DNA from: Nitrosopumilaceae archaeon
GTDB taxonomy: Archaea; Thermoproteota; Nitrososphaeria; Nitrososphaerales; Nitrosopumilaceae
Length of the DNA: 64,000 bases
Direction: 5' to 3'
Assembly (NCBI GenBank): GCA_965208905.1
Contig: OZ242365.1
Location: 384,001-448,000 of the forward strand
Below are positions 10,383 through 59,514 of the stretch, piece after piece. Position 1 is the stretch's first letter, and every line of letters begins with the position of its first letter. The translations under genes were made by a program, and so were the position numbers. The notes beneath the pieces were generated by a model. The model worked only from the letters and a program-made list of their open reading frames with translations, did no database searches and had not been told where the DNA came from.

Positions 10383-11826
10383 GGAACTGTCCCATCTACA
10401 GCGCGTGTCCCAAGACAGCGCGTAGATTGACAGCCTGTTGTACAACAGGTGTTGGTGGCGAACCACCATCCAGAGGAGTTACATTGAGATGTTCTTTGTT
10501 GGTTGGATGTTGACACCCATCCTTTGGACAGCCTGTGCCGGCCATCACGTCATTAGCACTTGGAGGAATCATGCAAGTGCCAAGATGTATCTTTCCTCTC
10601 AAGACCATTCCAGCCTTGGCTTGCAGACTATATGCGGTCTGCGCGCGCTTGCTCCAAGATATTACATCTGGAACGTATAGTATATTGTACGCGGCATTGA
10701 TGTCCGCGTGCATTAATACACCACATGTATGGCACCAAAACCTACTGCTCTTGCGCGTTGTGTTCTTACCACCGCACATACAGCACTGTTGAGATGTACC
10801 ACATTGATTGGTTTCCACATATTCTATACTGTGTTGCAGGGAACTCTGCGCGATGTGGCTTCGCGCCTCACCACATTTGGACTGCCGCATTAGACGGTTC
10901 TTGTTTTTCTGACCCTTCCCTTTTGTGGTTATGGTTCTGAGGTTCATGCCCTCCATGATGATTTTGTCGCACTGCGCGAATAGTTTTTTGGCGAACTTGC
11001 GCAGCCTGTCCGTCTGCCTATTTCCCATCTTACGGTATATACATTGCAGTTGCGCATGCAGGTTGCGCCACTTGTGTGAATAAAGTCTGCAATGAGACAT
11101 CCTTTTCTGTATTCGCGCTATGTTCCGCATGGTATCTTTTTCACGAAGTGTCAGCATCGCAATACTCCCATCCGACTTTCCAACAATGAGTGTGTGCTTG
11201 CCACCCATGTCTATGCCCGCATGTACGCCGGTCGTCTTGCGCTTTGGGATGTGTTCACGTATAGTAATATGCAACTCGAACTGCCTCTCCTTATCACTGT
11301 GGTTTGTAACATCCACAAGCTTGTATAACTGGGATGTATTCGGGAGTGTGCCTTTCTGTAGTTTGAAGGGCTTGTCGCATTTTGGGAAATACACCGTATC
11401 ACCCTTGGACTTCTTACCCAACGGGACCGCGCTGTATAGTGGATATATCTTACGCTCGTACTTTACATGCGCACAACCTTTCATCTTATGACCTTCCCGT
11501 ATGGCGCCGTGAACCCAGGCCTGTGGTATACCCTGACACATGGTGGCTACTTTATTGGTGTCGAACACTGACAGACCGGCCCGACGCGCCTCAATCCCCG
11601 CATTGAGCCATATGTGTGATTCCGAATACATCGAGTCAAAATATCTGGTGAGTTTGGTTGATGTCTTGAGACGGTACCGCAGAGTCCTAACAACGTACTT
11701 TCCACCTTTATACTTCATGTATTATTCACCACTCGGTGATATTTAAGCTTCTTGTTTGCCCAACATCTAAAGCAGGATGTCAATCTACGCGCTGTTTTGG
11801 GACACGCGCTGTTTTGGGACAGTTCA
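10383..11826 (-). mobile_element. TIR-bounded TnpB-only element, family A copy 1
   Basis: Inverted ends GGAACTGTCCCATCTACAGCGCGTGTCCC.. (10383) and ..GGGACACGCGCTGTTTTGGGACAGTTCA (11826); flanks TCTTACAG (10375-10382) and TCCTACAG (11827-11834) form an 8-bp TSD with 1 mismatch. Confidence 0.85.
10396..11718 (-). CDS. tnpB: TnpB RNA-guided endonuclease (family A)
   Basis: RuvC-I GIDMGGK, RuvC-II IMEGMNL, Zn finger TSQQCCMC..CHTC and RuvC-III HADINAAYNI; TTAAATA promoter about 25 bp upstream. Confidence 0.92.
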   Translation of the reverse strand: MKYKGGKYVVRTLRYRLKTSTKLTRYFDSMYSESHIWLNAGIEARRAGLSVFDTNKVATMCQGIPQAWVHGAIREGHKMKGCAHVKYERKIYPLYSAVPLGKKSKGDTVYFPKCDKPFKLQKGTLPNTSQLYKLVDVTNHSDKERQFELHITIREHIPKRKTTGVHAGIDMGGKHTLIVGKSDGSIAMLTLREKDTMRNIARIQKRMSHCRLYSHKWRNLHAQLQCIYRKMGNRQTDRLRKFAKKLFAQCDKIIMEGMNLRTITTKGKGQKNKNRLMRQSKCGEARSHIAQSSLQHSIEYVETNQCGTSQQCCMCGGKNTTRKSSRFWCHTCGVLMHADINAAYNILYVPDVISWSKRAQTAYSLQAKAGMVLRGKIHLGTCMIPPSANDVMAGTGCPKDGCQHPTNKEHLNVTPLDGGSPPTPVVQQAVNLRAVLGHAL

Positions 11827-18422: not shown

Positions 18423-19864
18423 GGAACTGTCCCATCTACAGCGCGTGTCCCAGGACAGCGCGTAGATTGACATCCTATTTTAGATGTTGGGCAAACAAGA
18501 AGCTTAAATATCATCAAGTGGTAAACCACACATGAAGTACAGAGGCGAAAAGTACGTCATTAGAACTCTTCGGTACCGTCTCAAGACATCAACCAAACTC
18601 ACCAGATATTTTGACTCGATATATTCGGAATCACACATATGGCTCAATGCGGGGATTGAGGCGCGTCGGGCCGGTCTGTCAGTATTCGACACCAACAAAA
18701 TAGCCACCATATGCCAGACAATCCCCCAAGCTTGGGTTCATGGCGCGATACGGGAAGGCCACAAGATGGAGGGATGTACTCACGTAAAGTATAGCAAAAA
18801 GGTTTACCCCCTGTTTAGTAGCGTGCCGCTCGGCAAAAAGTCCAAGGGTGACACGGTGTACTTTCCAAAGTGTGATACTTCTTTCAAACTGCAAAAAGGG
18901 TGTCTACCTGACACATCACAGTCGTATAAAATCGTAGATGTGTCGAATAGTACAGACAGGGAAAGACAGTTCGAGCTGCATGTAACTGTACGTGAACATG
19001 TCCCGGACCGTGTATGTACCGGCATACATGCGGGTATTGACATGGGCGGCAAGCACACACTGATTGTTGGAAAGTCTGACGGTACAATTGATATGCTTAC
19101 ATTGCGCGAGAAGGATACTATACGGAATATCGCACGGATTCAAAAGAAGATGTCCCATTGCAGACTTCACTCCCACAAGTGGTGTACACTGCACGCGCAG
19201 CTGCAAAGCACATACCGCAAGATGGGGAATAGGCAGACAGACAAGCTGCGTAAGTTTGCCAAAAAACTGTTCGCGCAATGCGATAAAATCATCATGGAGG
19301 GGATGAACCTCAGAACCATGACCACAAAAGGGAAGGATCAGAAAAACAAGAACCGTCTAATGCGACAATCAAAATGTGGCGAGGCGCGGGCCTTGCTGGC
19401 GCAACAATCACTTAAACATAACACCGAGTATGTCGAGATTGACCAGAAATATACATCACAGTTATGCTGTGTGTGCGGTAGTAAAAACACGGGGCGCAAA
19501 AGCAGCCAGTTCAGGTGTTATGATTGTAATGTTCTGATGCACGCTGATATAAACGCCGCATTCAACATCCTTTTCACTTTTCGTACTGTACAGTGGAGCA
19601 AGCGGGTGCAAGCCGTTTACGCACTGTACAACAAGGCCGGAATGGTCTTGAGAGGGAAGATACATCTCGCGACACTCACTATACCCAGTGTCGTTGGTGA
19701 TGTGATGGCCGGTACAGGCTGTCCAAAGGATGGGCGTCAAAGTCCAACCAACAAGGAACGTCTCAATGGAGCTCCTCTGGATGGTAATTTGCCAACATCT
19801 GTGTTAACACAGGATGTCAATCAACGCGCTGTCTTGGGACACGCGCTGTAGATAGGACAGTTCC
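18423..19864 (+). mobile_element. TIR-bounded TnpB-only element, family A copy 2
   Basis: About 50-bp inverted ends GGAACTGTCCCATCTACAGCGCG.. (18423) and ..CGCGCTGTAGATAGGACAGTTCC (19864); flanks do not match, so no TSD is retained. Confidence 0.85.
18532..19851 (+). CDS. tnpB: TnpB RNA-guided endonuclease (family A)
   Basis: GIDMGGK / IMEGMNL / TSQLCCVC..CYDC / HADINAAFNI; paralog of 10396-11718. Confidence 0.92.
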   Translation: MKYRGEKYVIRTLRYRLKTSTKLTRYFDSIYSESHIWLNAGIEARRAGLSVFDTNKIATICQTIPQAWVHGAIREGHKMEGCTHVKYSKKVYPLFSSVPLGKKSKGDTVYFPKCDTSFKLQKGCLPDTSQSYKIVDVSNSTDRERQFELHVTVREHVPDRVCTGIHAGIDMGGKHTLIVGKSDGTIDMLTLREKDTIRNIARIQKKMSHCRLHSHKWCTLHAQLQSTYRKMGNRQTDKLRKFAKKLFAQCDKIIMEGMNLRTMTTKGKDQKNKNRLMRQSKCGEARALLAQQSLKHNTEYVEIDQKYTSQLCCVCGSKNTGRKSSQFRCYDCNVLMHADINAAFNILFTFRTVQWSKRVQAVYALYNKAGMVLRGKIHLATLTIPSVVGDVMAGTGCPKDGRQSPTNKERLNGAPLDGNLPTSVLTQDVNQRAVLGHAL

Positions 19865-30411: not shown

Positions 30412-31529
30412 TGTCTTCCAAAGACGCCCCAGCGGCTCTTCTTGTATCCCCCTATTACACGGTCTAGCATATCATATGTGATGGTAAAACCATTTCCAAC
30501 CATGGTGTCATTCTTGTCATATTTACCTGGGTCGTCCACGACATCTCTTATCTTTCTGGATTTGATGTCTCGAAGGAACAACCTCTTTCCATCCTCTAAT
30601 GATACAATCATATCATCACTCAGACCTATTATGGAATACTTTTCAAAGAAGCGTATGGAGCCACCCTTTCGTACCATCACACTACAGTCGTATGTAGCTT
30701 TACTCCCATAGATGGAGATGTCGTGGCCTATAATGCGAACATCATCTTCCATGTTTTTGATGATTATGTTCTCCCCCTCCAATAGTACAGTGTCAGTAGC
30801 GTTCTCCAACACCACACTTCCATGAGGCGCATACAGGTGCGTTCTATGCTCTTGTACTGTGTACAGACCCACGCGGCCGTCCGGGTCATTAACCCTGTAC
30901 TTTCTACCGCGAACATCCCCCACCACAATGTTGCCTCTCTCGGCAGTTATGTTGGCCCCGTTCTCTATACGGTATCTATTCTTTAAAGGGTCAACCATCT
31001 TAAAGTCGCCCGATTGTAGTTTGATATCAGTCTTGAACTCTTTGGTCCATGATGGACTGTTTATGCTGCCCTGCATCAGCATAGGGCCAGCATATGTCAG
31101 GGCACCTGCCATGTAGTTTCCCTTCATGTATAATGTTTTATTGGCTTTCACCTCAAACTCCATCTCACCAAACGTCTTTGAGCCGAACATTCGGGTTCCA
31201 GTTACACCACTGCGCAGGAGGGCTCCGGCCCACTCTTGCGCAGCATTCATCTGGGCGCTTATCTCCTGTCCTAATATCTCATTTCTCTTCTTTATCTCCC
31301 GGTCCGTATCACCCGAGAAGACCCGAGAGTTTCGTAATTTTTCCAGAGGTGTGTCTGGATACTTCTTTCCCCTCTTTAGATCCTCGTAAGCCTGCTTTAT
31401 CTTCATGAATCTACTACTGTCCCCACCCCGGTCTGAATGCTCTAATAGTGCCATGTGCCGGAAGGCATCCCGGATGTCTTTCTGAGTAGCCCCCTCTTTT
31501 ATCCCTAGAATATCATAGTTGCTCTCCAT
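30408..31529 (-). CDS. J-domain (DnaJ-like) protein
   Basis: N-terminal YDILG..IRDAFR..HSDRGG..IKQAYE (variant HSD instead of HPD). Confidence 0.8.
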   Translation of the reverse strand: MESNYDILGIKEGATQKDIRDAFRHMALLEHSDRGGDSSRFMKIKQAYEDLKRGKKYPDTPLEKLRNSRVFSGDTDREIKKRNEILGQEISAQMNAAQEWAGALLRSGVTGTRMFGSKTFGEMEFEVKANKTLYMKGNYMAGALTYAGPMLMQGSINSPSWTKEFKTDIKLQSGDFKMVDPLKNRYRIENGANITAERGNIVVGDVRGRKYRVNDPDGRVGLYTVQEHRTHLYAPHGSVVLENATDTVLLEGENIIIKNMEDDVRIIGHDISIYGSKATYDCSVMVRKGGSIRFFEKYSIIGLSDDMIVSLEDGKRLFLRDIKSRKIRDVVDDPGKYDKNDTMVGNGFTITYDMLDRVIGGYKKSRWGVFGRH

Positions 31530-31596
31530 GAGTATGTAATGCTATATTATCACTTTTTTATGATTCTTTTTTTGACTCTGGTGCCACTGACCTTAA

Positions 31597-33068
31597 GGGA
31601 ATTATATACAAAAGTACACAGCCTCGGCTGTACACTCATGCCTTTTCTGACGGCTTTTTTGTATACAGTGGAGCATAGAAGGTGTTGGCTTGTAGTCCTC
31701 CTTGTGCCCCGGCCGTCTTAGGACGACCTTCCCCGCCGCCCTATGCAGAATATTCCAGGCGGCATTGACATCCGCGTGGAATACCCTGGTACAATTAGTG
31801 CAAATGAATTTGTCGCGTGATATACGCGACTCTGAATCTACGTAACCACACACATGGCACGTCTGGCTCGTATATTTGGCCGATGCCCCCAACAGCGGTA
31901 TGTTGTGCATCTCACACCACTGCGCAAGCTTGCGCAGGAACTCCCCAACATGGTTCTCCCGCATTGAACGGTTCATGGCGCGTTTGTAATTCCCGCCATA
32001 CGTGGTCATATCCTGTATAGAGAGTGATTCGGCCACGACTGCGTCCACACCATTGGTTATCTGTACAATCGTCTGATTTATGGTGTTCGCAGCTATGTTG
32101 TTGGCCTTCCTGTATAGCCGCTTTATTTGGTCATTCAATATATGCCACTTCCGGCCATGTCGTGTCTTGCGGTCGCGCAAACTCTTTAGCGCGTCAATCT
32201 CCCGCAGGATTGCTCTATGGCGGGTGTTGTGTATTGTAACATTACCATTTGTGTCGACAGTGACGGCGAGATGCTTGCCTCCCACATCGACACCCCGTAT
32301 TGTACCAGTATTGCGGTGCGACTCTACCGGTTCATGTATGGCAATATGCAGCTCAAACATGTGGTCTGACGGCTTTGTATGCTTGTCCACCCGTTTGGTG
32401 ACATCAACTATCTTGAATGAGCGCATGTCCCATAATACATTGATGGGCTTGGCGGTCTCTACAATACCATATCCGGGGATATGTATGGTGTGCTCGCCTT
32501 TCTGTATAGGCGGTGTAACGGAACTCAATATGATGCGGCCGTCTTTGCGGCGGTATGGCGCGTGGCCGGAGTTGTCATCTACAACTCTTCCACATGCGAT
32601 AGAGGCATCCTGTATGGCGCCCCTACCAAACGATGTGGGGCACTCGCGCAGCCATGCATGTTCAGCGCGCCACTCCGTAAGCTGCTTGAACATGCCGTAC
32701 TTTAATGCCCTCTTTGACGGCCCAAAGTCATATGTCTGATAGTCATCTTCCAGTGTACCTGATGTAAAATCGTCCAGTGTGTTTGGTAGTTTGAAGGGCT
32801 GTAGTATGTCCACTACCACCCTCCCCATATATTCGCCACCAAACAAATACTCTGATACGGCCCGGTTGTACACATATCTTGACGCATGATTCGTGCGGTG
32901 CGCCCACTTGGCGAATGACACATCCCTTCGTAGCGGTACCTTGACTACCCGTATCATAATGTGTAATACGGTATACTGGTATTTAAGGAGAGTTGCTGTA
33001 TGGACGCGTTCCGTGGTTCAGGAAGTAACTCTCAGAATCGGGGTTGTGTACTTTTGTATATAATTCCC
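31597..33068 (-). mobile_element. TIR-bounded TnpB-only element, family B (IS1595/ISNwi1-like ends)
   Basis: Perfect 24-bp TIR GGGAATTATATACAAAAGTACACA (31597-31620 and 33045-33068); flanks GACCTTAA (31589-31596) and TACCTTAA (33069-33076) form an 8-bp TSD with 1 mismatch. Confidence 0.9.
31602..32957 (-). CDS. tnpB: TnpB RNA-guided endonuclease (family B)
   Basis: RYVYN, RuvC-I GVDVGGK, RuvC-II VAESLSI, TSQTCHVC..CTNC and RuvC-III HADVNAAWNI; TTAAATA promoter about 23 bp upstream. Confidence 0.92.
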   Translation of the reverse strand: MIRVVKVPLRRDVSFAKWAHRTNHASRYVYNRAVSEYLFGGEYMGRVVVDILQPFKLPNTLDDFTSGTLEDDYQTYDFGPSKRALKYGMFKQLTEWRAEHAWLRECPTSFGRGAIQDASIACGRVVDDNSGHAPYRRKDGRIILSSVTPPIQKGEHTIHIPGYGIVETAKPINVLWDMRSFKIVDVTKRVDKHTKPSDHMFELHIAIHEPVESHRNTGTIRGVDVGGKHLAVTVDTNGNVTIHNTRHRAILREIDALKSLRDRKTRHGRKWHILNDQIKRLYRKANNIAANTINQTIVQITNGVDAVVAESLSIQDMTTYGGNYKRAMNRSMRENHVGEFLRKLAQWCEMHNIPLLGASAKYTSQTCHVCGYVDSESRISRDKFICTNCTRVFHADVNAAWNILHRAAGKVVLRRPGHKEDYKPTPSMLHCIQKSRQKRHECTAEAVYFCI

Positions 33069-33106
33069 TACCTTAACAATATAAGACATAATACAAAATA
33101 TAGCAT

Positions 33107-34834
33107 ATGGTTGAGGAGGAACTATCCCAAATCTCAATAACGGAGTTTGAGAATATATGGATGCTCTTTCTGTCTTCTACATCGATACAGGTTGCTTTTG
33201 TAGTACTGATATCGGGTATGATTGGTATAATTAGCGGGTATAGAAAGTTCTCCAATTGGGTTACCGGTCAAAAATTCTACTATGAGAGACCACATGCGTC
33301 ACGGTTCCTGCGGCGGGTTGCCTTACCATTCTTTGCCATCGCACTTATCACATCATTTAATGTGTATACACAATTTACTTTGAGTAGTGCAGAGACGCAT
33401 AATGTGGCCGCCGAGGAGACACTATCAAAGATACTGAATACCTTCAATATACTGGTTATAGGGTATACTGTAGCACATCTTGTTCCTATAATACTGAACA
33501 AGATTGAGAAGAGAAAGCTGGAAGAGTTGGATTTTGATATATGGTTTGAGATGCGTGGGTTTGTTGATGACGCTGATGGGTTCTTCCATAAATTATACAG
33601 ATGGGTTCCGCCCCGAACCGCCCCCGAAGAGATAGGCGAAGAGAGATTCACTGAACTACTCAAAACACCCGAAGGCATCTTGTATCTAGAAGCGTTTAGG
33701 ACATCAAAGGGGGTCTCTATAGGTAGTTATGAGGAACTACAGGATGATACATTTGAGACCTGGAAGAAGTCTGAGAGAAGAAAGTTTGAAAAATATTACA
33801 ACGACTGCATAAGTGGGGACAACCAGTCGGGCAGAAAACTAAAACCCAACTCCATACCACGCGAGATATTCTCCATAGATATATGGCGGGAAGAGAAACG
33901 CCTGAACGGTTATGATTATGTGGTGCCAGGTGCCCGACCCCCTGGCCACGCAACAAGAAAGAAGAAGGATGCGCCCATGTCCTTACAACGCATCTTACCA
34001 TTGGTTATATTCGCCGCCGTTGGATTGGGAGTTGCTGCCTCATGGGGCATAGACTTGTTTGTTCTGGCTACTGCCACCGGCGGCTTCTCCATAGGGTTGG
34101 GACTGGCACTACAAGAGACGATGCAGAACTACTTTGCGTATATAACTATACGGAAAGACAAGATAGTCGTTGAGGGTGACCGTATAAAGTTGGAGAGCGG
34201 TTACAATGGGAATGTGCACAAGATAACTCCACGAGTTACATATATCATGGACCCACTATACGAGTCTGTCGCCATAATTCCGACCAGGCAGCTGGTTGCC
34301 ACCCAGATTGTAAACTATACAAAAGAACACCATGTGGTTCCGGCAGTGGTATCTGTGGGGGTATCATACTTGAACAACCCCCGTCAGGTGGCATCTATTC
34401 TACATAAGGTGGGAGTACGCGCCATGCGTGAAATTGTCGATGACAAAGGCAGGCACATCATACGACAACATCGATGTCCAAACTTGGATGAAAACAAGGC
34501 CAGTTGTGGTTGTGATCGAGACGTACACGAAAATCTGTCACAACCTATTGTACGCTTTTCGAACTTTGGCGACTCGGCTTTGGACTTTACTGTGCTGGTT
34601 TACGTTCGTAACTATGGATCCCAGTTCAAGACTAAAACTGAGATGCGGGTTATGATATATGAAGAGTTTGAAAAATACGACATTCGTATACCCTGGCCTA
34701 TCCGAACCATATACAACAGCAATGAGGCTCAGGAACGTGAAGATATAGCCAAACGTGATAAAGCCCGTGAAAAGTTGATGAAAGAGTATAATGTGTTTGA
34801 TATTGTTCCGAGTGATGATGGTTCAACAGAATAG
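33107..34834 (+). CDS. MscS-family mechanosensitive channel (large)
   Basis: TM helices, GLGLALQETMQNYFA, EGDRI, VGVSY, FGDSALDF and IRIPWP motifs. Confidence 0.9.
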   Translation: MVEEELSQISITEFENIWMLFLSSTSIQVAFVVLISGMIGIISGYRKFSNWVTGQKFYYERPHASRFLRRVALPFFAIALITSFNVYTQFTLSSAETHNVAAEETLSKILNTFNILVIGYTVAHLVPIILNKIEKRKLEELDFDIWFEMRGFVDDADGFFHKLYRWVPPRTAPEEIGEERFTELLKTPEGILYLEAFRTSKGVSIGSYEELQDDTFETWKKSERRKFEKYYNDCISGDNQSGRKLKPNSIPREIFSIDIWREEKRLNGYDYVVPGARPPGHATRKKKDAPMSLQRILPLVIFAAVGLGVAASWGIDLFVLATATGGFSIGLGLALQETMQNYFAYITIRKDKIVVEGDRIKLESGYNGNVHKITPRVTYIMDPLYESVAIIPTRQLVATQIVNYTKEHHVVPAVVSVGVSYLNNPRQVASILHKVGVRAMREIVDDKGRHIIRQHRCPNLDENKASCGCDRDVHENLSQPIVRFSNFGDSALDFTVLVYVRNYGSQFKTKTEMRVMIYEEFEKYDIRIPWPIRTIYNSNEAQEREDIAKRDKAREKLMKEYNVFDIVPSDDGSTE

Positions 34835-34839
34835 TCATG

Positions 34840-36352
34840 GGTTCCTACTGCAAGCACGGGGGTTCCCGCATCCACAATACATCACACGTCACGCCAGAGG
34901 ACGACGGTGCATGATACATCTCGTTCCCCGGTCTGTGCTTGACGTTTCTCAGGGGAGCTGATGCGAGAACCCTCCACGTCCAGACACCCCTTAACATGGG
35001 TGCTGCCGGTATGGTCCGGCAAGTTTCGTAAGTTTAGTTGACCATGCATGGCCTCTGAGCCCAACTTTTTTAGCCCCGCATCCTCTATGTTTGAGCCCGC
35101 ATTACAGTCGGCATGATACGTGTAGCCACACTTCTTACACAAGAATTTTCTACCATCCCGGTTATCCTTATGTGTATAACCGCACGAGTAGCACCGTTGA
35201 CTTGTATACGCTGCCGCAACCCAAATTATTTCGCCAGCCAACTTGTACGCCAACAGTAATGCCAACAGCCCCCAGCACTGCTCCAGGATGGCCTTATTGA
35301 GACCAGATTTCTGCGCAACGTTTTTGCCGGGGTTTTCTTCCGTACCCTTGGCGGACTTTGCCATGTTTTGTATAGGAAGTTTTTCAAAGGCCGCATGTGT
35401 GGTGCTGTCCGATATAACGCGTGATATTTTATGCGCGGTGGTCTTTCGAATATTTGCGGCTTTGCGTTTGTTCTTGGCGGCACGTTTGCTGGCTTTGGCC
35501 CACCGTCGGGAGCCGGGCTTACGATTCGTATGGTTGGGTTTCTGCCTGCGTGACGCTATCTTTTGTGCCTTAGAGGCTGTTTTTCGGCGTTGTTCATGCG
35601 GCGTGCCACCTTTTCGGGTATTATCATCACACAGTCAGGTGTGGCCACATTACCGACATTCCGGTCTATACCAATAACAGTCGGTTCCGTCACGGTTGGC
35701 TTCTCATCGGGTATATCACAAGATATGGTAATCCTCCACCCACCATCCGGTAGTTGAAACAGTTGTGCCGTCTTGTATCGGTAATTCAAGACGGGAAACT
35801 CCCGCGACAGTTTAACCTCGCCCATCTTAGCTATCTTGACTGTACGTTCGCCAGTGAAGCGCGCTTGACCAATAGTGCCATCATGCGTTATTGTAAACGG
35901 GATGGAGATGTGACCTCCATATTTCTTAAAGTGCGGTTCACCAAACTCCGCCTTAGGTTTGATGTTGACAGCCTTCAGCTTCTCTGTTTCCACATATTGG
36001 TCATAATGCCTGCCCAAGTCATGTAATACTTGGCGCGTCACCCCGGATATGGATTGACGCATCCAACGCGGACCTGAATCGTTGCGCAAGTCCGTATACC
36101 ACGCGTTTATCCTACCACGCGTAGTGTTGACCCTCCCAGCTCGACGGTACTCTTCCTTGAAGGTTCCCAATAGTTTGTTATACACGTACCTGTCCACGCC
36201 GGCCTGTCTGGCCAACATCTCCTTCTTGAACCCTTTACGGAATCTAACGCCGAATGTGTATGTGCGTAGTACCATTAGCGTACAGTACGGTCTACATGTT
36301 TAAAAAGATAGTTGAGATGTGATACATAACACCCGTCCTTGCGGGAGGAACC
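34840..36352 (-). mobile_element. TIR-bounded TnpB-only element, family C copy 1
   Basis: Ends GGTTCCTACTGCAAGCACGGG (34840) and CCCGTCCTTGCGGGAGGAACC (36352); flanks TAGTCATG (34832-34839) and TAATCATG (36353-36360) form an 8-bp TSD with 1 mismatch. Confidence 0.88.
34882..36275 (-). pseudogene. tnpB: Frameshifted tnpB (family C)
   Basis: ORFs 35556-36275 and 34882-35364 are the two halves of the 58076-59509 protein; an A5 run (35580-35584) replaces the A6 run of the intact copy. Confidence 0.9.
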
Positions 36353-57998: not shown

Positions 57999-59514
57999 GG
58001 TTCCTCCCGCAAGGACGGGTGCCATATATGACACCTCAACTATCTTTTTAAACATGTAGACCGTACTGTACGCTAATGGTACTACGCACATACACATTCG
58101 GCGTTAGATTCCGTAAAGGGTTCAAGAAAGAGATGTTGGCCAGACAGGCCGGCATGGACAGGTACGTGCATAACAAACTATTGGGAACCTTCAAGGAAGA
58201 GTACCGTCGAGCTGGGAGGGTCAACACTACGCGTGGTAGGATAAACACATGGTATACGGACTTACGCAACAATTCTGGTCCGAGTTGGATGCGTCAATCC
58301 ATATCCGGGGTGACGCGCCAAATATTATATGACTTGGGCAGGCATTATGACCAATATGTGGAAACAGAGAAGCTGAAGGCTGTCAACATCAAACCTAAGG
58401 CGGAGTTTGGTGAACCGCACTTTAAGAAATATGGAGGTCACATCTCCATCCCGTTGACGATAACACATGATGGTACCGTCGGCCAAGCGCGCTTCACCGA
58501 TACACGTACAATCAAGATAGCCAAGATGGGCGAGGCTAAACTGTCGCGGGAGTTTCCCGTCTTGAATTACCGATACAAGACGGCCCAACTATTTCAACTA
58601 CCGGATGGTGGGTGGAGGATTACCATATCCTGCGATATACCAGATGAGAAGCCAACCGTGACCGAGCAGACTGTTATTGGTATAGACCGGAATGTTGGTA
58701 ACGTGGCCACACCTGACTGTGTAATAATGGTACCCGAAAAGGTGGCACGCCGCATGAACAACGCCGAAAAAACAGCCTCTAAGGCAGAAAAGATAGCGTC
58801 ACGCAGGCATAAACCGGACTGTGTAAATCGTAAGCCCGGCTCCCGACGGTGGGCCAAAGCCGCCAAGAGGGTTGCCAAGAACAAACACAAAGCTGCAAAC
58901 ATGCGAAAGACCACCGCGCATAAAATATCACGCGTTATATCGGATAGCACCACACATGCAGCCTTTGAGAAACTTCCTATACAAAACATGACAAAGTCCG
59001 CCAAAGGTACGGAAGAAAACCCCGGCAAAAACGTTGCGCAGAAATCTGGTCTCAATAAGGCCATCCTGGAGCAGTGCTGGGGGCTGTTGGCATTACTGTT
59101 GGCGTACAAGTTGACTGGCGAAATAATTTGGGTTGCGGCAGCATATACAAGCCAACGGTGCTACTCGTGTGGTTATACACATAAGGATAACCGGGATGGT
59201 AGACGGTTCTTGTGTAAGGAGTGTGGTTACACGTATCATGCCGACTGTAATGCGGGCTCAAACATAGAGGATGTGGGGCTGAAGAAACTCGGTCCGGGGG
59301 CTAGGCATGGTCAACTAAACTTACGAAACTTGCCGGACCATACCGGCAGCACCCATTGTACAAGGGGCGTCTGGACGTGGAGGGTTCTTGCGTTAGCTCC
59401 CCTGAGAAGCGTCAAGCACAGACCGGGGAACGAGATGCTCTATACACCGTCGTCCTCTGGTGTGACGTGTAATGTATTGTGGATGCGGGAGCCCCCATGC
59501 TTGCAGTAGGAACC
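57999..59514 (+). mobile_element. TIR-bounded TnpB-only element, family C copy 2 (intact)
   Basis: Ends GGTTCCTCCCGCAAGGACGGG (57999) and CCCATGCTTGCAGTAGGAACC (59514); perfect 8-bp TSD AGGTCTCC (57991-57998 and 59515-59522). Confidence 0.92.
58076..59509 (+). CDS. tnpB: TnpB RNA-guided endonuclease (family C)
   Basis: RYVHN, RuvC-I GIDRN, RuvC-II AFEKL, GLNKAILEQCWG, TSQRCYSC..CKEC and RuvC-III HADCNA; TTTAAA promoter about 25 bp upstream. Confidence 0.92.
   Translation: MVLRTYTFGVRFRKGFKKEMLARQAGMDRYVHNKLLGTFKEEYRRAGRVNTTRGRINTWYTDLRNNSGPSWMRQSISGVTRQILYDLGRHYDQYVETEKLKAVNIKPKAEFGEPHFKKYGGHISIPLTITHDGTVGQARFTDTRTIKIAKMGEAKLSREFPVLNYRYKTAQLFQLPDGGWRITISCDIPDEKPTVTEQTVIGIDRNVGNVATPDCVIMVPEKVARRMNNAEKTASKAEKIASRRHKPDCVNRKPGSRRWAKAAKRVAKNKHKAANMRKTTAHKISRVISDSTTHAAFEKLPIQNMTKSAKGTEENPGKNVAQKSGLNKAILEQCWGLLALLLAYKLTGEIIWVAAAYTSQRCYSCGYTHKDNRDGRRFLCKECGYTYHADCNAGSNIEDVGLKKLGPGARHGQLNLRNLPDHTGSTHCTRGVWTWRVLALAPLRSVKHRPGNEMLYTPSSSGVTCNVLWMREPPCLQ

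Follow-up and report, generated by a model that had tools for sequence, protein, structure and literature searches.

A tnpB cassette with IS1595-type ends and an orientation-specific flank motif in a sponge-associated archaeon of the Nitrosopumilaceae

The known biology of TnpB accounts for the service that this RNA-guided nuclease renders to scarless transposons of the Y1 and serine types. In the IS200/IS605 and IS607 families, there are neither terminal inverted repeats (TIRs) nor target-site duplications (PMC13565253, PMC3627910), the transposase TnpA is a Y1 or a serine enzyme, and the transposon-adjacent motif (TAM) is the transposase's own target site. Since 2023, TnpBs have also been known from DDE transposons, including solo TnpBs moved in trans. 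Indeed, six DDE-associated TnpB branches (DDE-1 to DDE-6), all with inverted ends, have been described together with solo TnpBs that have matching ends and are probably mobilised in trans (Altae-Tran et al. 2023, PNAS; PMC10691335). The survey scored a transposase only when it lay within 1 kb of tnpB, so that purely trans cases would go unlinked. A 2026 review names ISL2, IS630 and IS1031 as DDE partners and describes the prokaryotic association as rare and its benefit as unclear (PMC13565253), while in eukaryotes Fanzor1 and Fanzor2* are found in cut-and-paste transposons (Yoon et al. 2023, PMC10711439; Bao and Jurka 2013, PMC3627910). Here, we describe a system of this kind in a stretch of 64,000 nucleotides from the genome of a sponge-associated Nitrosopumilaceae archaeon (contig OZ242365.1, positions 384,001 to 448,000), referred to below as the window. 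The element, a mobile unit of 1.47 kb at 31597..33068, is a non-autonomous unit transposon with IS1595-type TIRs, tnpB as its only gene and an 8-bp target duplication. IS1595 would be a new partner family for TnpB, and a flank motif that depends on the orientation of the element is a further new result.

Ends, gene and copies of the element

The element is bounded by GGGAATTATATACAAAAGTACACA, which is present just twice in the window, in inverted orientation (31597-31620 on the + strand and 33045-33068 on the - strand), and in none of 100 dinucleotide-preserving shuffles. The perfect 24-bp inverted repeat that had been proposed in a first-pass annotation of this DNA is therefore exact and not expected by chance. 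The same annotation had read the flanking 8-mers, GACCTTAA (31589-31596) and TACCTTAA (33069-33076), which are identical at 7/8 positions, as a target-site duplication. A congeneric genome (G083; 2 contigs, 99% complete) agrees with this reading, as the counterparts of both flanks, 97% identical to those around the window copy, are joined there by a single TACCTTAA; since the same site is empty in G083, the 8-mers are a true duplication, and the mismatch arose afterwards in the copy at 31589. The tnpB stop codon (31602-31604) lies, as had also been noted, inside the right TIR, which is right in the orientation of tnpB and left in window coordinates; in particular, the terminal repeat encodes the stop together with the last five codons (VYFCI).

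The protein of 451 aa is encoded by the sole long open reading frame (ORF) of the element with a family match. It reaches 59.9 bits against PF07282, the Cas12f1-like TNB domain (cut-off 26.3), and 122.8 bits against the NCBIfam model NF040570, guided_TnpB (cut-off 100), while its score against PF01385 (27.4 bits) is under the cut-off of 30.5. The residues D224, E310 and D396 and the cysteines C367, C370, C386 and C389 are invariant in 13 aligned sequences, so that the RuvC-like D-E-D triad and the C4 zinc finger accompany the above-cut-off profile matches in placing the protein among the TnpBs, and the closest solved structure chains are TnpBs as well. Between the window tnpB and 13 other copies, the ratio of nonsynonymous to synonymous substitution rates (dN/dS) is 0.16-0.30 at dS values of 0.19-0.87, which indicates that TnpB is under purifying selection and that the family is old. 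An antisense ORF (32080-32739, 219 aa) was rejected as a gene: it has no Pfam match, and the length of the open frame varies in relatives.

The genome (G000) consists of one contig of 2,214,775 bp with 45.6% G+C and is 99.6% complete. It contains 21 occurrences of the exact 24-mer and 16 TnpB ORFs that cluster with the TnpB of the window, 14 of them full-length. With the copies read in tnpB orientation, the 8-bp duplication is perfect in 12/16, matches at 7/8 in the window copy and is absent in three. Copy-to-copy identity is 77-98%, and both 24-bp arms are exact in seven copies with diverged interiors. TnpB-less derivatives are also present, one of 115 bp with a perfect duplication and one of 641 bp with a 6/8 duplication, in which 123 nt of the right end accompany 531 nt of the left end; that such derivatives have duplications speaks indirectly for movement by a transposase supplied in trans. 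Two solo remnants of ~200 nt (G000:C1:1493807-1494006 and 2197134-2197325), ~85% identical to the window copy, hold only the last ~200 nt; they cover the part predicted to form the omega-RNA and are either truncations or stand-alone RNA genes. One copy (G000:C1:1972621-1975198) is split by an IS630-type insertion sequence of 1109 bp (DDE_3 plus HTH, 335 aa), whose five identical copies in the genome indicate recent activity.

Insertions at many sites with 8-bp duplications are accompanied by polymorphism between close relatives. Indeed, G083 is empty at 4/4 sites checked, each of which reads as predicted (flank, one 8-bp target, flank), with flanks 94-98% identical to those of this genome (loci L150, L179-L187). 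Among the 24/24 candidates scored in G083, none matched this TnpB family. G083 is without any of the 16 copies, though these differ mutually by up to 23%. With a threshold of E <= 1e-40, members of the family were detected in 7/300 other genomes of the taxonomic family (6/9 of the same genus and 1/37 in another genus), and the named homologs belong to Nitrosopumilaceae and 'Cenarchaeum' assemblies from sponges. In a further genome, G065, the TnpBs have 56% amino-acid identity, and their elements begin GGGAATTATATACATAGATTCAC and show perfect 8-bp duplications in five copies. Since tips and duplications are kept at 56% identity, and since the C-I-stop terminus encoded by the repeat recurs in 10/13 aligned homologs, the union of TnpB with these ends is ancient rather than a one-off capture. 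A scan of JGI metagenomes with an alignment of 13 homologs as the query gave no new members, the best of the top 80 loci being 40% identical over its best segment, and no joints or empty-site forms were seen over 31000-33700 in two sponge RNA-library and two DNA-type runs.

The source of the transposase

The element is without a transposase of its own, and tnpB is its only ORF with a family match, hence it is non-autonomous. A profile search of the whole genome returned 75 TNB-domain matches, with about 70 TnpB genes, and no match to either Y1_Tnp (PF01797) or Resolvase (PF00239). An IS1595 transposase gene beside tnpB is absent in 15/16 loci, the match at the other one (L120) being a separate neighbouring element, and in none of the 16 loci checked does tnpB lie inside a transposase-bearing IS1595 element. 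The first-pass annotation had taken the element for an IS1595-derived cassette whose sole passenger is an RNA-guided nuclease, a view that gains support from the IS1595 elements with matching tips described below and from the lack of TnpA. It had also suggested that pairs of the 24-mer be examined for an enclosed IS1595 transposase; the search found the 21 copies, but no such pair.

Four elements of this genome encode strong IS1595-family transposases, and all four have perfect 8-bp duplications. Three of these transposases were scanned with NF033547 and score 173-177 bits (cut-off 75), and one scores 139.6 bits against PF12762 (DDE_Tnp_IS1595), with a marginal zinc ribbon. Their ends begin GGGAATTATATA[C/G]TT... 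or GGGAATTATAGTG..., with the tip form GGGAATTATAG, and equal the first 10-13 nt of the TnpB repeat (13 nt with two elements, 10 nt with the other two); the 13-mer tip is found in this genome only in repeated elements. Two of the IS1595 elements, at different sites, are identical at 2130/2131 positions, which points to recent transposition. The other two (G000:C1:1043578-1046414 and 1770047-1772736) have a passenger that, by motifs recognised in the translations, we take to be a DNA methyltransferase with an HNH nuclease fused or linked to it; in the second of them, the passenger is present as two ORFs of 150 and 346 aa. In G083, the ends of IS1595 elements with perfect duplications match the repeat at 21/24 and 18/24 positions. 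More generally, the IS1595 elements of congeners have 14-15 nt from the tip in common with it, up to 21/24 positions, and IS1595 domains are present in 5/5 related genomes searched. IS1595 transposases with matching ends, whose absence here and in relatives had been named as the finding that would speak against an IS1595 origin, are therefore present in both.

The traits of the IS1595 family, which makes 8-bp duplications and whose relatives have ends in GG (PMC8101967), are also those of the TnpB element, with repeats that start GG and duplications that are perfect in 12/16 copies and agree with 4/4 empty sites. In addition, its ends are held in common with elements that encode DDE_Tnp_IS1595, over 13 nt in this genome and at 21/24 positions in G083. 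By comparison, the ends of the IS6-like elements (GGTTCTGTC... and GGGGCTGTT...) match at 7-10/24 positions and over only 2-3 nt from the tip. From the sequences compared, we infer with high confidence that an IS1595-family DDE transposase encoded elsewhere would recognise the common GGGAATTATATAC tips and move the cassette in trans. The tips GGGAATTAT agree with ggnnatTAT, which we take to be the end consensus of the ISNwi1 group, and the assignment to this subgroup is likewise our assumption; a transposase-less element of this sort is presumably what is termed a mobile insertion cassette.

Flank motif and predicted omega-RNA

When the two ends are told apart by internal sequence, 22 distinct left-end flanks are available (this genome contributes 16, G065 and G018 three each). 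In 21/22 of them, G stands directly 5' of the left-end duplication, at -1 in tnpB orientation (binomial p = 6e-13), and A at -4 and T at -3 are each present in 14/22. At the right end, the mirrored base (C at +8) is present in 6/31 cases (Fisher p = 2e-8 versus the left end). Transposase-bearing IS1595 elements have G at -1 on 4/16 sides (3/8 in this genome, 1/8 in G083; Fisher p = 7e-6), and further tips of this type in the genome have it in 8/38 cases (21%), which corresponds to the background (0.229). As for the other TnpB families, c4, a different family with the same 13-nt tip, has G at -1 in 0/5 copies, and c6, a related family with a 22/24 repeat, in 3/3. The G is found at 3/4 of the G083 empty sites, with T at the fourth, and it is therefore part of the target, not of the element. 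One further empty site differs in the second target base, the comparison covering four sites only. A promoter of the host was considered as the origin of the motif; a divergent host ORF starts within 150 nt of the left end in 7/16 copies, so that this account fits those at most and is unsupported for the 9/16 with none nearby. From the flank frequencies, we infer that the G motif is a putative TAM and that the guide would start at the duplicated target.

Conservation along the element is highest in its last ~280 nt. The RNAalifold prediction from 13 right ends comprises seven helices and 43 pairs, with two-sided (compensatory) changes at 10 of these pairs; among the helices are a long-range stem and, formed with the inner part of the repeat, a terminal hairpin, and a 16-nt tail (UUUUGUAUAUAAUUCCC) reaches the element tip. 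In the alignment, 97.1% of the cells are paired, compared with 91.1% in shuffles, 0/500 of which reach the observed value, and with 43-54% when the partners are slid. By analogy with known TnpBs, in which the guide follows the scaffold, the guide is placed past the right end, and the span predicted in this way agrees with the G083 empty site at 19/20 positions. Contigs from RNA libraries cover the element in scattered places and, in another copy, span one junction at the right end. In particular, a sponge contig of 433 nt joins 97 nt of the right end (31596-31692) to the flank of the copy at 1972621 and may be either read-through RNA or DNA carry-over.

The coordinates of these features are collected in the table, together with members of two other TnpB families in the window. 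In a census in which inverted repeats and duplications were found by motif-based pairing, all five other TnpB clusters examined have terminal inverted repeats; 8-bp duplications are present in at least some copies of c1/c3, c2 and c4, and no duplication was found for c5. The c1/c3 elements begin GGTTCCTCCCGCAAAG and c2 begins TGGGCTGTGACGTT. Two elements of 3.4 kb encode a DDE_Tnp_IS240 (IS6-like) transposase of 420-425 aa along with restriction-modification-like cargo; they end GGTTCTGTCAAG... and GGGGCTGTTAAG..., which presumably resemble IS6 ends, and at least one has an 8-bp duplication. The TnpB families of this genome thus seem to ride two DDE families. An orientation-specific motif of its own stands 5' of the left-end duplication in c1/c3 (12 copies with duplications, e.g. 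57999-59514), with T at -2 and T or A at -3 in all 12 copies and with A or G at -1 in 11/12; the duplication begins with C in 9/12, and there is no mirror motif. Two c6 elements of 1639 bp (G000:C1:1455264-1456902 and 2049469-2051107) are without matching duplications, and the sequence to the left of one (TAATTTCC) is the same as that to the right of the other, which points to recombination of the two copies with each other and a resulting rearrangement.

Table. Features of the tnpB element and members of other TnpB families in the window (right and left ends in tnpB orientation)
Feature	Position	Strand	Remarks
Guide part of omega-RNA (predicted)	31577..31596	-	Right-end duplication (31589-31596) plus 12 nt of flank; reads TTAAGGTCAGTGGCACCAGA on -
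Target-site duplication beside right end	31589..31596	.	GACCTTAA on +; single TACCTTAA in G083
Right-end terminal inverted repeat	31597..31620	.	Exact match; holds tnpB stop
omega-RNA scaffold (predicted)	31597..31786	-	Overlaps tnpB 3' end and stops at element tip
tnpB, 451 aa	31602..32957	-	RuvC D224/E310/D396 and CxxC...CxxC zinc finger conserved
Left-end untranslated region, presumed tnpB promoter region	32958..33044	-	From sequence only
Left-end terminal inverted repeat	33045..33068	.	Exact match
Target-site duplication beside left end	33069..33076	.	TACCTTAA on +; G083 empty site
TAM-like flank motif	33077..33080	-	ATTG on -; G (33077) adjoins duplication
Family c3 element	34840-36352		
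Family c3 element	57999-59514		
Family c2 ORF	10396-11718		
Family c2 ORF	18532-19851		

Proposed mechanism and its alternatives

According to the proposed explanation, an IS1595-family transposase supplied from elsewhere would move the cassette in trans. The scaffold of the omega-RNA would be formed by the last ~190 nt and end at the right tip, the guide would be read from the flank and open with the 8-bp duplicated target, and the TAM would be the conserved G (about A-T-N-G) that directly precedes the left-end duplication. The unoccupied allele would then present TAM, target and flank and be cleavable, while the occupied allele would be protected both at the left, where the match to the guide ends after 8 nt, and at the right, where the element tip sits at the position of the TAM. 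Cleavage of the empty allele followed by recombinational repair would restore or spread only insertions beside a correctly oriented TAM, and this selectivity would explain the bias for G. We consider the explanation as a whole, namely an IS1595-type tnpB cassette with mobilisation in trans and this scheme of TnpB, TAM and guide, to be probable. For the part that concerns the nuclease, that TnpB is active and RNA-guided, with the last ~190 nt as its scaffold, a guide from the flank and the G as its TAM, the sequence evidence leaves the chances roughly even.

A more tentative idea, which we hold to be somewhat more doubtful than probable, is that the TAM of TnpB decides which of the insertions made by IS1595 exist. 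One option is that insertions would persist or spread only when they are correctly oriented and lie immediately 3' of a TAM. A DDE transposon that duplicates its target would in this way have acquired an RNA-guided homing drive, and the 8-bp duplication would provide the first 8 nt of the guide. A bolder option is that TnpB bound at the TAM would position the staggered cut of the transposase. A drive of this kind might leave a footprint between strains, and the 16 diverged copies here, with 0 in a relative that is 94-98% identical and has clean empty alleles, one of them with the TAM G changed to T, could be such a pattern.

Several observations weigh against the explanation. The copies differ by 2-23% and hence do not stem from a recent burst. 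In this genome, the full 24-bp repeat was not found on any element with a transposase gene; the IS1595 ends agree with the repeat over the outer 13 contiguous nt at most and at 16-17/24 positions overall, and G083, with the closest IS1595 ends, has no copy of this TnpB family. The TAM is read from flank statistics, on a motif that is short and essentially one invariant G, and the 7/16 copies near a divergent ORF start leave some room for an effect of promoter context. As regards the RNA, the folded region is coding, the structure was derived from the same alignment on which it was tested, and most of the two-sided changes come from one split, between the type of this genome and that of G065. 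In addition, an Rfam scan of 31300-33400 found only a chance match to PYLIS_2 (E = 0.79), and contigs from RNA libraries, which cannot show strand, ends or RNA as opposed to DNA, give no verdict on expression.

As to how the element moves, TnpB-only elements are commonly filed under IS200/IS605 or IS607, and the protein indeed matches the OrfB_IS605 and TnpB models. An ordinary element of the IS200/IS605 (IS1341-type) or IS607 kind, moved by a Y1 or serine TnpA, can nevertheless hardly be what is present here, as the 24-bp TIR and the 8-bp duplication are foreign to both families, the duplication is confirmed by empty sites, and the genome has 0 Y1_Tnp and 0 Resolvase matches. A different DDE transposase, such as the IS6-like enzyme (DDE_Tnp_IS240) or an unrecognised one, might move the cassette if the likeness of the tips were convergent. 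The 13 nt to which the contiguous match with in-genome IS1595 ends is limited would be compatible with this, as would the 8-bp duplications that the IS6-like elements of the genome also produce. We regard it as quite improbable, given the poor match of the IS6-like ends (7-10/24, 2-3 nt from the tip), the confinement of the 13-mer tip to repeats and the 14-15 nt, up to 21/24 positions, shared by congener IS1595 elements.

The reading of the G as a TAM has a more serious competitor, in which the base at -1 would reflect a target preference of the transposase or promoter context with selection on orientation, and TnpB would be a passenger or act otherwise. The 7/16 copies within 150 nt of a divergent ORF start fit this account, and so do non-TnpB elements with perfect duplications, which have G on exactly one side in 5/7 cases. 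Against it, IS1595 elements (4/16 sides) and other tips (8/38) remain at background, c4 has the same tip without the motif (0/5), the G is always upstream of tnpB (21/22 versus 6/31 for the mirror position), and 9/16 copies have no divergent ORF start nearby. We therefore hold this competitor to be unlikely, though it deserves to be taken seriously. Finally, TnpB might be domesticated or inactive, for example as a guide-RNA-directed regulator, with the copies as immobile relics. The copies are mutually old (dS 0.19-0.87), yet 14/16 ORFs are full-length, which would suit such a role, whereas the intact RuvC D-E-D residues and zinc finger, the polymorphism at 4/4 sites with respect to the 94-98% identical relative and the exact arms of seven copies despite diverged interiors make it very improbable.

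The IS1595-type cassette resembles the DDE-1 to DDE-6 TnpBs in its symmetrical inverted ends and in having the tnpB 3' terminus near the end of the transposon, and the solo TnpBs of Altae-Tran et al. 2023 in the proposed mobilisation in trans. It differs in its partner, as in the main text and one supplementary file of that survey IS1595 appears as a profile name only (PMC10691335), to which its figures and additional GenBank files may add. At the level of titles and the openings of abstracts, none of the literature searched that names both TnpB and IS1595 links them as partners, and no literature was found that joins TnpB with Cenarchaeum or 'Nitrosopumil-' names. With the IS1595 family, the cassette has in common tips that start GG and a duplication of 8 bp (PMC8101967). 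The IS1595 partner elements encode a DDE_Tnp_IS1595 transposase with zinc ribbon and have passenger genes, whereas the cassette is transposase-less and carries an RNA-guided nuclease as its passenger. With the TnpBs of IS200/IS605 and IS607 it shares the nuclease family, the position of the gene at the right end and, as predicted, an RNA scaffold over the 3' end of the gene; unlike them, it has DDE-type ends, and its putative TAM lies outside a variable 8-bp duplication. There is also an analogy with Fanzor elements, which are likewise non-autonomous, have TIRs and duplications, encode the nuclease only and have an RNA that runs through the repeat into the flank, as is predicted for the cassette. 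In Fanzors, a short fixed duplication (TA, TTAA) lies within scaffold and TAM; as the duplication of the cassette is 8 bp long and variable, it would instead have to be the start of the guide.

All in all, with about 70 TnpB genes, no TnpA, defined IS1595-type ends, and filled and empty alleles in close relatives, this genome offers a natural test case, in which a flank motif tied to orientation yields a prediction for the TAM as well as for the position where the guide begins. If this prediction is borne out, the logic of TAM and guide would have adapted to transposons that duplicate a variable 8-bp target, and a compact archaeal nuclease of 451 aa with a predictable guide would be added to those known. 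The flank motif may show how the nuclease helps such transposons to persist.

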